DNA of 23,006 nucleotides from a virus. Its lineage: Duplodnaviria; Heunggongvirae; Uroviricota; Caudoviricetes. Below, in pieces: positions 15,212 through 22,407 of this stretch. The notes under the pieces were generated by a model that worked only from the letters and a program-made list of their open reading frames with translations, was not told where the DNA came from and ran no database searches. The stretch lies in IMG/VR virus record IMGVR_UViG_2617270967_000008; one strand, given 5' to 3'. Each line of letters opens with the position of its first letter. Within the stretch, counting starts at the first letter, position 1. The position numbers and the translations under genes are program-made.

Positions 15212-15288
15212 TGGCGCGTTGTACTGGATTCGAACCAGTGACCGATTGCTTAGAAGGCAATTGCTCTGTCCGGCTGAGCTAACAACGC
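15212..15288 (-). tRNA. tRNA-Arg (anticodon UCU)
   Basis: Hand-folded cloverleaf: acceptor GCGTTGT/ACAACGC, D-arm GCTC/GAGC, anticodon loop CTTCTAA, T-arm ACTGG-TTCGAAT-CCAGT, discriminator G, encoded CCA. Confidence 0.85.
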
Positions 15289-15304
15289 AGGATACAGATA
15301 ATGA

Positions 15305-15378
15305 ACCGCCTTCGGGGATCCGAACTCCGCGCAACCAGCTTCGAAGGCTGGCGCTCTTTCCTGATGAGCTAATGGCGG
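15305..15378 (-). tRNA. tRNA-Arg-like (anticodon UCG) with non-canonical features; possibly degenerate
   Basis: Hand fold: D-arm GCTC/GAGC, anticodon arm CCAGC-CTTCGAA-GCTGG; T-loop TTCGGAT with one A-C mismatch in the T-stem; acceptor 6/7 paired, starts C1-G72, no encoded CCA. Confidence 0.5.
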
Positions 15379-15385
15379 TATGTGA

Positions 15386-15461
15386 TGGTGGCCCTTGCTG
15401 GATTTGAACCAGCGACCTGGCGATTATGAGTCGCTCGCTCTCACCACTGAGCTAAAGGGCC
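15386..15461 (-). tRNA. tRNA with anticodon CAU, resembling E. coli tRNA-Ile2 (ileX-like) rather than tRNA-Met
   Basis: Hand fold: acceptor GGCCCTT/AAGGGCC, anticodon loop CTCATAA, T-arm GCTGG-TTCAAAT-CCAGC, encoded CCA; overall resemblance to ileX as recalled. Confidence 0.8.
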
Positions 15462-17965: not shown

Positions 17966-19015
17966 TTACCCAAGCACGCCAGTTGCAAAGGCGTGATCAA
18001 GAAAACGAAAAATTAAATCAACCTGAGAACCATGCTTTTCTTCGAACGCCAGAGGATCCGCATGAAGCTCGTTGTGATGCTCCCGACACAGCGGTAGCGT
18101 GAAAATATCGTGAGATTTTGTCCCCATTCCGCCCTGACCATGACCAATCAGGTGATGGGGATCGTCGGCTGGCTTACCACAACACGCACACGGCTGTGTC
18201 TTCACCCAGCGTGTGTATTTCTCGTTAACCCAGCGGCGACGTTTAGGTCGTTTCATGAAAGATTCCGGAGACTCAGGATCAACGGCAATGCTGACCACCG
18301 TCTTTTCCTGTGGTGGGTTCTGTTGCTGGTGGGCGTGAGGCAGCGGCGCAAGATTTTTTGTGCGCTGTTTCAGTATGCTGGTGGCGGTCTGCTCTCCCGG
18401 TACGATGTCGCTTTCACGGTACATTGAGCGGATTTTTTCCGCACGCAACCCCAGCGAACGACGTAATACCGCTTCCGGTAGCGCGTCCGCCACCTGATTG
18501 CGGACCGCCCACCAGGATAATTCAGCCAGCGATAATTCCCGCTCCTGTGTGCCATTCATTGCGTGACGAATGACGTCAATCATCCATGCTGACAAGTTTT
18601 GGTGAGCAAGTTGCTCAAGTGATTCGGAGGTCTGGTCACGCAACTGGTTGTCGCAGTGCCAGCACAACACCATTGCGCCGGTACCATAACGGTGAATGAC
18701 GGTTTCGCTGTGATGATAATCGCCGTGTGGCCACTGGCAGGATTTAATATGGCGCAACAGCCAGTCAGACAATGCACCAGCACCACCAGCAGCACGAATC
18801 ACCCGTGCGTTACTGAAAAACGGCAGCAATGTTTTGTCTTCCACCAGCGGCTGGCGAACGGCAGGAACGACCCCGGACGGCAGATTACGCATGCTTTTCG
18901 GTTCCGGCTCCACCAGTACCCGGGTATTGTGGAATACCGGCATGGATTCACGGCCCGGCTTAACGATCACCAGCCCGAGTTCCGGTACCAGAACAGGTCG
19001 AAGTAATACTCGCAC
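17966..19015 (-). CDS. DUF968-type protein (YdfU-like) with C-terminal Cys/His-rich HNH-like motif
   Basis: 349 aa, the same length as K-12 Qin YdfU as I recall; C-terminal CACCGKP...HHLIGHGQGGMGTKSHD...CREHHNELH motif. Confidence 0.6.
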   Translation of the reverse strand: MRVLLRPVLVPELGLVIVKPGRESMPVFHNTRVLVEPEPKSMRNLPSGVVPAVRQPLVEDKTLLPFFSNARVIRAAGGAGALSDWLLRHIKSCQWPHGDYHHSETVIHRYGTGAMVLCWHCDNQLRDQTSESLEQLAHQNLSAWMIDVIRHAMNGTQERELSLAELSWWAVRNQVADALPEAVLRRSLGLRAEKIRSMYRESDIVPGEQTATSILKQRTKNLAPLPHAHQQQNPPQEKTVVSIAVDPESPESFMKRPKRRRWVNEKYTRWVKTQPCACCGKPADDPHHLIGHGQGGMGTKSHDIFTLPLCREHHNELHADPLAFEEKHGSQVDLIFRFLDHAFATGVLG

Positions 19016-19016
19016 G

Positions 19017-19295
19017 TTACCTCCAGATGCGTTGCTGGAATGTGCGGGACGGACGCGGTGAGCGTTCGGAGTAAGGAAGCCTGACGGAGATTATCCAGTG
19101 ACGATAATCGAGGCTGAGGGCTTTCTTAATCTCGTATCCGTGTCTGCGGTAGCACTGAATTAGCCACTCGGCCTGTTCTTCAGTGCATGGGGGATGCTGG
19201 AACCAGTCAGATTTGAAAGTGCGGGAACGCCGCCCGTGCCTGCTGGCAAAGACGGCAGAATCATCAGAATTGTGTAATTTGGTATCGTGCGCCAT
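19017..19295 (-). CDS. Hypothetical ~92-aa protein (position equivalent to rem of Qin; identity unverified)
   Basis: ATG 19295 (MAHDTKLH...) downstream of a terminator and a TTGTTT-N18-TACAAT promoter-like sequence; the upstream ORF-track extension contains the terminator. Confidence 0.35.
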   Translation of the reverse strand: MAHDTKLHNSDDSAVFASRHGRRSRTFKSDWFQHPPCTEEQAEWLIQCYRRHGYEIKKALSLDYRHWIISVRLPYSERSPRPSRTFQQRIWR

Positions 19296-19365
19296 CGGTT
19301 GTCTCTGCTGGCGCAGCAGGTGCCAGTTGTTCAGGCTGGCGTGCGAATTGTAAACCAGAATGCCA

Positions 19366-19394
19366 GGAAAAAACAAAACCCGCCGAAGCGGGTT
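19366..19394 (-). terminator. Rho-independent terminator downstream of hok
   Basis: Minus-strand AACCCGC-uucg-GCGGGUU followed by UUGUUUUUU. Confidence 0.65.
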
Positions 19395-19462
19395 ACGTGC
19401 GGGTGCGTTGAGGATGCCTGACACATCAGAGGTGGCGAGGGGTTTCTCCCTCGCCGGGTCTC

Positions 19463-19618
19463 TTACTCCTCAGGTTCGTAAACTGTGAAGACAGCGACCT
19501 CCGTCTGGCCGGTTCGGATTCGTACCTCGCAGAGGTCTTTCCTCGTTACCAGTGCCGTCACTATGACGGTTAAACAGATGACGATCAGGGCGATTAACAT
19601 CGCCTTTTGCTGCTTCAT
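19463..19618 (-). CDS. hokD: Hok/Gef-family type I toxin (HokD-like, 51 aa)
   Basis: MKQQKAMLIALIVICLTVIVTALVTRKDLCEVRIRTGQTEVAVFTVYEPEE is near-identical to HokD as I recall; AAGGAG RBS; an upstream in-frame ATG gives a mok-like extension. Confidence 0.85.
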   Translation of the reverse strand: MKQQKAMLIALIVICLTVIVTALVTRKDLCEVRIRTGQTEVAVFTVYEPEE

Positions 19619-19909
19619 AGCCTGCTTCTCCTTGCCTTTCGGCACGTAAGAGGCTAACCTAGATTTGCCGTTCATAGATTGAGCCTCAGATTAATGTTAA
19701 GCGTCTTGCAGGACGCGTAATGTTAACTGGGGCTTTTCTCTATCTGCCTTTTGGTATTCATGCCTGAGACAGATAGCCTCAAGCACCCGCAGCAATTCTA
19801 CTTAACTATCCTTTCCCCGCAAATCGTTTTTATCCCCAGCGACAAATCGAATACACCACCAGCGCCACCGCCATTGCGATCCCTACCGTTGTGAATGCCT
19901 CAGGCCAGG

Positions 19910-20254
19910 TCATCGTAAAACATCCTCTGCGCTTATCAGTCCGTTTCGCTTCAGGTAGTCCATCGCCTTACCCGGCAATTTACAGTCCGGCTTCGTTTTC
20001 CTCAGTTGCCAGGTTAACTGCTTTACCAGCATGGTTAACTCGTCGACCAGACGCTGATGTCCCACTGGTTTGTATTCATGCAATTTACCGGCTGGCTCTG
20101 CTGCCAGCGATGCCAGTGCGATTTCCAGAACAGCAATATCCATCTTATATGTGCGGATGATGTCATGGTCGATTGTGCCCGGTATGCACAGTCTCTGTGC
20201 TTCAATAGTCTCCTCTGCGTGAGCTATTAACTGCTCTCTGGTAAAAGTGGTCAT
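19910..20254 (-). CDS. Hypothetical 114-aa protein
   Basis: ORF whose start overlaps the stop of the upstream 130-aa gene (ATGA); no recognised motif. Confidence 0.4.
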
Positions 20255-20643
20255 GCCGCGCTTCCTTCTTGCTTATTAACGATTACACCGTCATATATTT
20301 CATTAAGGTGTCCCCTCAACTCCATGCGCCTTAATGCAGACAACATGTAATCGCATTCAACCTGCTTATTTCCAGTAAATGGCTTATCGTCAGGATCACC
20401 CCAACAGCAATTACCCTTGGGCCACCCATGTACTTTCCGTACTCTTCCGTTAACAACGTGAAGTAATCCCCAGCCAGGTGGTAAATCCTCAATTGAAATA
20501 ATTCCCGGCTCACTAATAAAGAATCTCCAGTCGCCCATGCCAAGAGAGGGATTTTTACGGAAACGCTTTTTTCTATCTGCCAACAAGTCAGCACGAGAAC
20601 ACTTCGCCTCTATCAGGCATGATGCTGAATTTCTGAATCCCAT
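20251..20643 (-). CDS. Hypothetical 130-aa protein (Cys/Trp-rich [14 protein letters not shown] segment)
   Basis: ORF coupled to the 114-aa gene; no recognised family. Confidence 0.4.
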
Positions 20644-20669: not shown

Positions 20670-21608
20670 TTACAGCAACAAAGCGGTCATGAAAGCAAAC
20701 CTTGAACCCGTTGCGCTTAAGGAACCTGTAACCAGTTCATCCCATTTTTCGCGAAGCTTTGACGGACTCATGATATTTTTTACCCAGAATGGATCCCGCT
20801 GCGCCCGACCAAACATTTCACAAATTTGTCTGTGAGTTCTGCCATCCAGCATCCGCATTGTGCGCACGTCGTTGGCCCATGCGGTCCAGTTGGGTTCTTT
20901 CGGTCGCGAAATCTCGCCATCATCGCTGGCGGCCTGCTCGTAAAGACTCACGATTCGTCCCCAGATCCACTGCGCACACGCCAAATCTTCCTGGTTGCCC
21001 CACTGGCGTTTTTTTGCACTGAACACAACCGCGTCAGGGTGTCGGGTTAAAAAATCCTGTTCAACCGTCTGCGGGTCCGGTTGCGAAGCTTCCGGACGAG
21101 AAGTGTTTTTATTCTCTGTAGTAATCTCTGTTGTATTCTCTGTAAGATCATCAGGCCATTTTGACCCGATGACATTGAGTCGTTTTGAACCAATGGAACG
21201 TGCCATTTTGGCCCCTTCCATCGTGTCATTCTGACCTGATGGAGCAGCGCATTTTGACCTGATGGATTCGCTCACTTTGCCACCATTTAAAAGCTCGCTC
21301 TCGTAATTAATCGTGTAAAAATTAGTCATATCACGCTTTGATTTATTGAGCTTTTCGCAACGCAAAAGCCCCAGCGTTTTCAGACTTGCAAATGCGCGTT
21401 TTAACGTTGACTCTGACCAGAACGGGAACTGCTCCAGCCATTGTTCTGTTGTGTTATAAATCCAGCGAACACCATCACATTCCATGCCGGAACCGGTATC
21501 TCTCAACCAGTAATGCAACTGCTGCAACACGATGGCTTCGTTCAGACCAATTTTCATCGCCAGCTGCGTGTTTATAACCAGCGGACGTTCAGCAAAAAGG
21601 AGCTTCAT
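20670..21608 (-). CDS. Putative phage replication-initiation / replisome-organizer protein
   Basis: N-terminal HTH-like region (LNEAIVLQQLHYWLRD...STLKRAFASLKTLGLL) and position upstream of the nin-like genes; start at ATG 21608 directly after a G9 tract. Family assignment is tentative. Confidence 0.5.
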   Translation of the reverse strand: MKLLFAERPLVINTQLAMKIGLNEAIVLQQLHYWLRDTGSGMECDGVRWIYNTTEQWLEQFPFWSESTLKRAFASLKTLGLLRCEKLNKSKRDMTNFYTINYESELLNGGKVSESIRSKCAAPSGQNDTMEGAKMARSIGSKRLNVIGSKWPDDLTENTTEITTENKNTSRPEASQPDPQTVEQDFLTRHPDAVVFSAKKRQWGNQEDLACAQWIWGRIVSLYEQAASDDGEISRPKEPNWTAWANDVRTMRMLDGRTHRQICEMFGRAQRDPFWVKNIMSPSKLREKWDELVTGSLSATGSRFAFMTALLL

Positions 21609-21617
21609 CCCCCCCCC
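21609..21617. repeat. Homopolymeric C9 (G9 on coding strand) tract abutting the replication-gene start codon
   Basis: Direct reading: nine consecutive C at 21609-21617; ATG at 21608..21606. Confidence 0.9.
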
Positions 21618-21628
21618 AGAACACGTTA

Positions 21629-21888
21629 TCAATGCGCCACCACGGCATTTCCCGCCGGACCACCACGATTCATCTGATCGAACAACACGATCGCTGCCGC
21701 AACAAACTCATCGATATCTTTCACCAGGCGCTCCCGTCGCTCGACAAGCTCCCGGTGATATTCCGAACTGTGGCTGCGCATTCGGGCCACCAGTGGAGGC
21801 GGCATTGCTTTTTCGATCGCCGGTAACAACGCCTGAATTTTTTTAACCGCATCAGGGGTGTCTTTTTCTACCCAGCGGAAAATTTTCG
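21629..21888 (-). pseudogene. 5'-truncated prophage gene (C-terminal ~66-86 codons) interrupted by the IS66-family insertion
   Basis: Open frame continues upstream of the track start with no stop until it enters the IS end near 21889; the stop overlaps the replication-gene region. Confidence 0.4.
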
Positions 21889-21972
21889 TAAGCGTAAAGC
21901 CAATGCCGTCTGTAACACCTGCTCCTTGCAGACTAAATTAGAGCTCCTTCTAAATTAGACGGAGTTCTATTG

Positions 21973-22407
21973 ATGGATAAACCTACAGACTGGCGCTCCG
22001 GAACCCGCCGGATATTTTCTAATGAATTTAAACTTCATATGGTTGAACTGGCTTCGAAACCAAATGCCAATGTTGCACAACTGGCCCGGGAACATGGCGT
22101 TGATAACAACCTGATTTTTAAATGGCTACGCCTCTGGCAAAGAGAAGGACGTATTTCTCGTAGAATGCCTCCAACTATTGTAGGCCCTACAGTATCACAA
22201 TCTTTTCCGGCCTCTCCGACTCTGGTTCCAGTGGAACTTATCGACACCCCGCGCTGTGCTACAGATGCTCCTGCTCCGGGGGCATTATCAGTTGCTTGTG
22301 CAGCTTCCTGCCATGTGGAATTCCATTACGGTAAAATGATGCTGGAAAATCCTTCACCAGAGCTGCTCACGGTGTTGATCCGTGAGCTGACCGGGAGGGG
22401 ACGATGA
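21973..22407 (+). CDS. tnpA: IS66-family accessory protein TnpA
   Basis: N-terminal ...RRIFSNEFKLHMVELASKPNANVAQLAREHGVDNNLIFKWLRLWQ HTH typical of IS66 orfA; ATG 21973 with GGAG upstream. Confidence 0.85.
   Translation: MDKPTDWRSGTRRIFSNEFKLHMVELASKPNANVAQLAREHGVDNNLIFKWLRLWQREGRISRRMPPTIVGPTVSQSFPASPTLVPVELIDTPRCATDAPAPGALSVACAASCHVEFHYGKMMLENPSPELLTVLIRELTGRGR

Follow-up and report, generated by a model that had tools for sequence, protein, structure and literature searches.

A probably complete hok/mok/sok toxin-antitoxin cassette of the hokD/hokW type in a lambdoid Escherichia coli prophage

The hok/sok system has figured in textbooks since the 1980s. Phage 933W has carried an annotated sokW since 1999, and a characterisation of this member followed in 2021 (Takada et al.). 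The hokW-mokW-sokW locus of Stx2 phage 933W and Sakai prophage Sp5 (AF125520) is the closest relative of the locus described here, with ~92% DNA identity over 19399-19913. In 933W, mokW, hokW and a 71-nt sokW misc_RNA are annotated, and mok and hok are in frame as they are here. Experimental work on this relative (all from PMC8621323) has detected the sokW RNA by northern blot and found that HokW is toxic and that sokW counteracts it, partly via RNase III and Hfq. In the Sp5 sokW 'pro-less' mutant, the same -10 element as in our locus was changed (primers YO-421/422, hok-strand TAGGTTA to CCGGCTC). The antitoxin activity was lost, and it was restored by sokW supplied in trans. Upon mitomycin C (MMC)/RecA-dependent induction, sokW RNA vanishes and HokW builds up in the inner membrane ~1 h before the endolysin, and phage release is about twofold higher with hokW-sokW than in the deletion (PMC8621323).

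Two other systems frame the comparison. The hok mRNA of plasmid R1 has a closed full-length and an open truncated conformation (PMC9841398). In E. coli K-12, the hok copies other than hokB are inactivated by IS elements or genomic rearrangement (PMC12214031). The K-12 Qin copy, hokD (relF), has the same Shine-Dalgarno sequence, 3' UTR, fold-back inhibition element (fbi) and terminator as our locus, as well as the same neighbourhood of hok, the DUF968 gene ydfU and Q. However, relBE is fused ~70 nt upstream of it, and the K-12 copy is without the hok promoter, the tac and ucb elements, the mok start and sok. The Rfam model RF01794 finds no match on the K-12 hokD locus. An alignment to K-12 hokD/sokD, which the initial annotation had proposed as a check, was run and turned out uninformative for sok: the K-12 homology begins ~15 nt before the hok ATG, with relE upstream. 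Because its whole leader and sok were lost in the relBE rearrangement, K-12 hokD is a poor reference.

Here we describe a hok locus within a 23,006-nt stretch of viral DNA (IMG/VR record IMGVR_UViG_2617270967_000008), which we call the window. The locus very likely represents a full hok/mok/sok type I toxin-antitoxin cassette from an E. coli prophage of the lambdoid group, Qin-like or Stx-phage-like. It would be the intact, ancestral-type counterpart of K-12 hokD and a close allele of hokW-sokW.

The toxin gene and its prophage surroundings

The genes around hok are those of a lambdoid prophage and are read on the minus strand, as is hok itself, which corrects the initial annotation. The position that had been claimed for hok, between replication and later phage genes, is borne out. 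An O-like replication initiator gene (20670-21632) is followed by a pair of ORFs without assigned function, then by hok, an ORF of PHROG 1212, a DUF968 gene (17966-19015), RusA and Q; the K-12 Qin prophage has its genes in the same order (hokD, rem, ydfU, ydfT). Directly after the O-like gene, a 130-aa ORF (20251-20643, minus strand) matches PHROG 9263 in its C-terminal part only (101-230 of 230), and no P/DnaC-type loader gene was seen after the O-like gene in the window. A related prophage in NZ_CP042892 has a 99.8%-identical hok locus and ~4 kb more between O and hok, with genes for an ATP-binding loader, DUF1627 and DUF977. The shorter interval in the window, together with the missing loader, suggests a deletion and perhaps a defective prophage.

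Further features were seen outside the O-to-Q interval. Just past the O-like gene, and on the other strand from it, a 145-aa ORF of IS200-like size (21970-22407, plus strand) matches PHROG 1013 'transposase' (3.8e-51). Three tandem tRNA genes (15215-15461, minus strand; Rfam scores of 72.5, 70.1 and 44.7 bits) lie downstream of Q; their counterparts in the NZ_CP042892 prophage are annotated as tRNA-Ile, tRNA-Arg and tRNA-Arg. Downstream of this cluster, the late region holds a full-length match to the gammaproteobacterial sRNA STnc100 (RF02076; 14165-14374, minus strand) at 145.6 bits against a gathering score of 47.

The coding features of the locus are as follows.

19463-19618, minus strand: hok toxin gene, 51 aa, HokD-type (ORF list, Pfam and K-12 alignment)
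19463-19675, minus strand: mok, a 70-aa reading frame in phase with hok that ends at the same stop codon (ORF list)
19628-19631, minus strand: GGAG, the Shine-Dalgarno sequence of hok, 9 nt ahead of its ATG and directly next to the sok -35 (read from the sequence)
19477-19480, minus strand: TACG motif at Tyr47, a TadA A-to-I editing motif with the editable A at 19479 (sequence motif)

The toxin is a small hydrophobic peptide of the Hok/Gef family, matching Pfam HOK_GEF (PF01848; E=6.4e-22, 77.3 bits with a cut-off of 22) and PHROG 251 'MokW-like host killing' (8e-32). Its near-identity to HokD, which had been proposed initially, was confirmed by alignment: 50 of the 51 residues are those of K-12 HokD, and one coding base change (GCT to GTT) gives A46V. 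The NCBIfam Hok HMMs match the peptide under their curated cut-offs (45 bits vs 73), so the HokD naming rests on this near-identity and on Pfam. The exact 51-aa and 70-aa sequences each occur on at least 1000 contigs, where they are called HokD or Hok family toxin, and NCBI records title the exact sequence 'type I toxin-antitoxin system toxin HokD', which places it in the HokD subgroup of the NCBI naming.

A good ribosome-binding site and an upstream in-frame start giving a mok-like leader had also been reported, and both are there, as the GGAG at 19628-19631 and an ATG at 19675. The block CAAGGAGAAG around the hok Shine-Dalgarno is kept in all related loci. The mok ATG is conserved across these loci, and the GAGG Shine-Dalgarno in front of it is common to them. 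The mok protein opens with MNGKSRLASYVPKGKEKQA-MKQQKAML..., and the 51-aa Hok starts inside it at 19618. From family knowledge, we infer that mok translation would be needed for hok translation.

TadA A-to-I editing recodes Tyr to Cys in hokC, hokD and hokE (PMC5630033, PMC12214031). In the window, the TAC codon sits within TACG near the C-terminus, in a predicted loop closed by CAG/CUG, like that of K-12 hokD. At the level of the motif, editing at Tyr47 may add a further control layer. The sole amino acid change from K-12 HokD, A46V (GCU to GUU), falls directly 5' of the UACG motif (19477-19483, minus strand). A46V is predicted to leave the TadA hairpin unchanged: locally, the allele in the window and that of K-12 fold alike.

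Immediately before the hok promoter there is a 27-aa hydrophobic ORF (19830-19913, minus strand); its ATG and the stop codon of the 114-aa ORF in front of it overlap (ATGA). The homology block shared with 933W stops exactly at its start codon, and the 933W ORF is likewise ATGA-coupled, to the unrelated upstream gene L0139. Compared with locus L006 of our set of related loci, the ORF has 7 synonymous and 0 non-synonymous differences; compared with 933W, it has 3 synonymous and 8 non-synonymous nucleotide differences (6 amino acid changes). On record it is named only 'bacteriophage protein' or 'hypothetical'. The ORF probably encodes a real small membrane protein travelling with some hokD/W modules. 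When the regions in front of hok were searched in every related locus, only a subset had the ORF (the window, L002, L006/L011, 933W and L025); the similarity in L007 and L009 was weak and judged unreliable. An assignment to DUF551 was rejected as a clustering artefact of partial sequences, the cluster's representative 121-aa DUF551 proteins being without the peptide. L025 (a Xanthomonas pisi contig of 431 nt) and L020 (an Acinetobacter idrijaensis contig of 275 nt) have an E. coli-type hokD with 93-100% peptide identity, and L025 carries the 27-aa ORF in its 933W form; both are probably contaminating reads and not true hosts.

Elements and predicted folding of the hok mRNA

The elements of the hok mRNA, all on the hok-sense strand, are listed below.

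19795-19822, minus strand: putative hok promoter, with -35 TTGCGG at 19817-19822, a 16-nt spacer and -10 TAGAAT at 19795-19800 (read from the sequence)
19370-19788, minus strand: full-length hok mRNA, ~419 nt (start inferred; 3' end set at the terminator T-run)
19777-19788, minus strand: tac, the translational activator element, GGGUGCUUGAGG, the first 12 nt of the mRNA (predicted folds and covariation)
19729-19735, minus strand: ucb or anti-SD box, AAGCCCC (predicted folds)
19684-19687, minus strand: mok Shine-Dalgarno, GAGG (predicted folds)
19650-19655, minus strand: dcb, the downstream complementary box, AGCCUC, pairing with 19682-19687 in the truncated fold
19401-19413, minus strand: fbi, the fold-back inhibition element, CCUCAACGCACCC, downstream of hok and complementing tac with one bulged C
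19377-19394, minus strand: intrinsic terminator hairpin of the hok mRNA, followed by UUUUGUUUUUU (terminator scan)

Related loci have TAGAAT, TATAAT, TACAAT or TATATT as the -10 of the hok promoter, which lines up with TATGAT of the R1 type. The putative transcription start at ~19788 aligns with the 5' end of R1 hok mRNA, and the RF01794 model starts at 19788. The hok promoter matches the consensus at 8 of 12 positions and the sok promoter at 7 of 12, and a sigma-70 consensus scan of 19250-19950 called no promoters, neither for hok nor for sok. Both promoters were placed by homology and published mutagenesis, not by consensus strength. The terminator reported after hok is present, with a 7 bp stem, 5 GC pairs and a T-run; it is the sole such site in 19250-19950 and is also present at K-12 hokD.

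The initial annotation had expected sok and the fold-back elements within 19619-19900. This is right for sok, tac, ucb, the mok Shine-Dalgarno and dcb, while fbi lies on the other side, downstream of hok. The same stretch had been described as ~230 nt of non-coding DNA; it is 282 nt long and partly coding, with the first 19 codons of mok (19619-19675) and a 3' portion of the 27-aa ORF inside it.

According to our structure predictions, the full-length hok mRNA has a minimum free energy of -167.5 kcal/mol (z=-6.4 vs shuffles), with its 5' and 3' ends paired. In this fold, tac pairs with fbi, and ucb pairs with the mok Shine-Dalgarno. In the predicted fold of a truncated 372-nt RNA, from which the 3' part was removed, tac pairs with ucb instead, and the mok Shine-Dalgarno pairs with dcb. 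The 419-nt and 372-nt RNAs are thus predicted to differ as a closed and an open form, matching the R1 model (PMC9841398). The fold-back elements expected in the initial annotation are present in these predicted folds.

The pairing of tac with fbi was also followed across related loci. RNAduplex on whole 230-nt flanks gave unreadable global duplexes and was replaced by a targeted search with the tac 13-mer, which was run on 47 genome loci encoding Hok relatives; the best 3' UTR partner was tested in 37 of them. In most of these 37 loci, a tac-fbi duplex lies ~45-56 nt after the stop codon, a distance kept across Escherichia, Kluyvera, Citrobacter, Pantoea and Photorhabdus. Compensatory changes accompany it: GGUGC/GCACC becomes GGCGC/GCGCC, GAGG/CCUC becomes GAGA/UCUC, GAAG/CUUC occurs as well, and there is also a G-U intermediate. 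Minimum free energy pairing and compensatory changes together support the long-range interaction. The tac search found no tac in the decayed copy L007, nor in L008 and L028, K-12-type copies with relE upstream.

The antisense gene and the state of the cassette

On the strand opposite to hok, the following elements were placed.

19632-19660, plus strand: sok promoter, with -35 TTGCCT at 19632-19637, a 17-nt spacer and -10 TAACCT at 19655-19660 (homology to sokW)
19667-19737, plus strand: predicted Sok antisense RNA, ~71 nt (coordinates carried over from the sokW misc_RNA of AF125520)

The block from -35 to -10 is base-for-base identical to that of 933W sokW, and the TTG of the -35 and TAnnCT of the -10 are kept in ~30 related loci (Escherichia, Kluyvera, Citrobacter, Pantoea, Photorhabdus). 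The predicted RNA consists of a 14-nt single-stranded 5' tail (19667-19680), a long hairpin (19681-19735) and a run of four U (19734-19737), the first two of which also close the hairpin. It folds at -30 kcal/mol (z=-5.6) into the canonical Sok shape, an unpaired 5' tail followed by a terminator hairpin and the U-run. By homology and fold, it thus has what a cis-encoded antisense RNA is expected to have: its own promoter, a free 14-nt tail, a hairpin and a U-run. At 19690-19725, the Sok hairpin and the complementary leader hairpin have ~16 extra nt with a GC-rich tip (GCGUC-uugcag-GACGC). This extension is seen relative to the Rfam consensus and to the R1, hokC-type and Photorhabdus loci, and it is specific to the hokD/hokW group.

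The Rfam model named 'sok', RF01794, matches at 19613-19788 over its full length, up to the hok ATG, with 112.4 bits (gathering score 59, E=3e-25). This is close to the score of the functional hokW locus (113.5) and above that of an R1-type plasmid copy (87.2). The match lies on the minus, hok-sense strand. As controls, the model falls on the strand opposite to the annotated sokW in 933W, and in an R1-type IncF plasmid its match and hok share a strand. Because it matches the hok-sense strand here and in both controls, RF01794 describes the hok mRNA leader and not the strand or ends of Sok; what the match does show is an intact leader. A naive annotation from it would place sok on the wrong strand with a length of ~170 nt. 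Outside the window, hok-sense matches of the model were noted at L001 (2715-2889) and L004 (332-503).

That the antisense partner is unannotated had been noted initially and is correct: the RefSeq annotation of identical copies shows nothing over sok. The initial annotation had also raised the possibility that sok is decayed, in which case hok would be either kept silent for good by the fold of its mRNA or constitutively toxic. This empty public annotation and the failure of the consensus scan to call a plus-strand sigma-70 promoter in 19250-19950 speak for decay. However, the -35, spacer and -10 are those of a validated sokW promoter, the terminator hairpin and U-tail are intact, and the leader scores as high as hokW on the covariance model. 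In addition, L007, a copy that is truly decayed, and L008 and L028, truncated copies of the K-12 type, stand clearly apart when aligned together with the window or yield nothing in the tac search. Decay of sok is therefore highly improbable, and the antisense gene looks intact at the sequence level.

An intact sequence does not guarantee activity, because earlier studies, as cited in a recent preprint (bioRxiv 10.1101/2025.08.07.668861), saw no post-segregational killing from chromosomal hokA, hokB and hokC although their elements are intact. The cassette may accordingly be sequence-intact and yet a physiologically silent relic like the K-12 chromosomal hok loci, weakly transcribed at most, releasing no Hok and carried passively by prophage recombination. 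In those earlier studies, the three loci mediated neither post-segregational nor rifampicin-induced killing. K-12 hokD mRNA is edited at a level of only ~6% (PMC12214031), and the prophage in the window may be cryptic, as it apparently has no helicase-loader gene and carries the IS200-like transposase. If the prophage itself is defective, a role in phage release would be moot. Against silence, all regulatory elements are kept, including the tac-fbi covariation and the promoter identical to that of a functional sokW. The locus has no IS element or rearrangement, unlike K-12 hokA, hokC, hokE and hokD, its closest relative hokW-sokW has a measurable phenotype, and the high conservation in more than 1500 genomes argues for selection. 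We regard a silent relic as unlikely and favour a complete cassette of the hokW-sokW kind.

Proposed mechanism, prevalence and relation to known systems

The mechanism that such a complete cassette would follow is taken from family knowledge; its support here comes from structure prediction, covariation and homology. The hok mRNA would be made from ~19788 to the terminator at 19377-19394. Pairing of tac with fbi would lock the full-length RNA and leave the mok Shine-Dalgarno covered by ucb, so that the RNA would be neither translated nor bound by Sok. Slow 3' trimming would then take off fbi. As a result, tac would pair with ucb, a target hairpin of the mok Shine-Dalgarno and dcb would form, and mok could be translated, driving hok translation. 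The unstable 71-nt Sok, made constitutively, would pair across the mok start codon via its 14-nt 5' tail, blocking mok/hok translation and triggering RNase III cleavage. Once Sok synthesis stops, Hok would be made and inserted into the inner membrane, and the cell would be killed or lysed. Such a stop could follow prophage induction, as shown for hokW-sokW, or loss of the element. Full Hok activity may also need TadA editing of Tyr47 to Cys. Prophage maintenance and phage exclusion are other possible roles.

The locus is common. At a coverage of at least 80%, its 651 nt are found in 1753 of 5426 complete E. coli genomes, in up to 11 places per genome, and in 83 phage records, mostly of Stx phages. 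A recent survey also found hok to be enriched in prophages (bioRxiv 10.1101/2025.08.07.668861). Across complete E. coli genomes, the identities of the 114-nt segment of the sok promoter and RNA are bimodal: 1562 records match it at 99% or more, 83 lie at 95-99%, and another 2315 at 90-95%.

The Sok tail (19667-19680), which corresponds to mok codons 2-5, is a hot spot of divergence. Compared with 933W, 6 of its 14 nt differ, altering Mok codons 2-5, against 8 of 162 elsewhere in the leader, and Fisher tests on the five closest relatives give p = 6e-6 to 5e-3. The copies co-resident in CP178302 (L006, L007 and L014) have different Sok tails. This pattern fits discrete specificity alleles and would be expected from known Sok recognition. 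Since Sok is encoded in cis, its complementarity to the target is automatic in spite of the 6/14 differences from the validated sokW, and the equivalence in kinetics is putative.

Two readings go beyond the complete cassette, and we put them forward together as a tentative proposal, possible but on balance doubtful. The Sok tail and the mok 5' codons might form a specificity cassette under diversifying selection. If so, the allele in the window would be of an orthogonal hok/sok type, so that as many as 8-11 prophage copies residing together would not cross-protect one another. In the second reading, anti-terminated read-through might drive the loss of Sok. The cassette is located within the early-right operon, which has the strand of hok, and the terminator scan found no terminator-like sites on the minus strand from ~22066 down to the hok terminator, an interval that includes the stretch from the O-like gene to hok. 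Transcripts of this operon could therefore continue across hok/sok, with the sok promoter facing them, as a possible route to Sok loss on induction. Anti-terminated transcription on induction could then occlude the sok promoter or titrate Sok, which would account for the unexplained RecA-dependent loss of sokW.

The practical value of the locus lies in annotation. RefSeq/PGAP calls the toxin HokD but has no annotation for mok or sok, K-12 hokD misleads as a reference because it is truncated, and the strand of RF01794 can mislead the assignment of sok. The window gives clean coordinates for each element of an intact hokD-type locus.

With 933W, the locus shares an identical sok promoter, a 71-nt Sok with the extended GC-tipped hairpin, the tac, ucb, dcb and fbi elements, and the upstream 27-aa ORF. 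Apart from the Sok tail, the two differ in the Hok C-terminus, which is TVYEPEE here and VDYESEK in HokW (46 of 51 residues identical overall), and in the strong terminator hairpin after fbi, which 933W is without. The map position also differs: the cassette lies between O and Q here and near the right prophage end in 933W. The hokC (gef)/mokC/sokC-type loci are like ours in their in-frame 19-codon mok extension, their tac-fbi pairing and their TACG-encoded Tyr near the C-terminus, but have ~80% peptide identity, a shorter Sok hairpin and another -10. R1 hok/sok (parB) has the same order of elements, the same predicted folding switch and a Sok with a free 5' tail and hairpin, and its sok promoter (TTGCGC, 17 nt, TATCCT in R1-type copies) has the same position relative to the hok Shine-Dalgarno. 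In R1, however, mok is out of frame with hok, the Sok hairpin is without the ~16 extra nt, and the carrier is a plasmid and not a prophage. HokW is 44% identical to R1 Hok (PMC8621323), and the Hok described here is only distantly similar to R1 Hok. In general, then, the system is one already known, and the window holds an ordinary complete copy of it.
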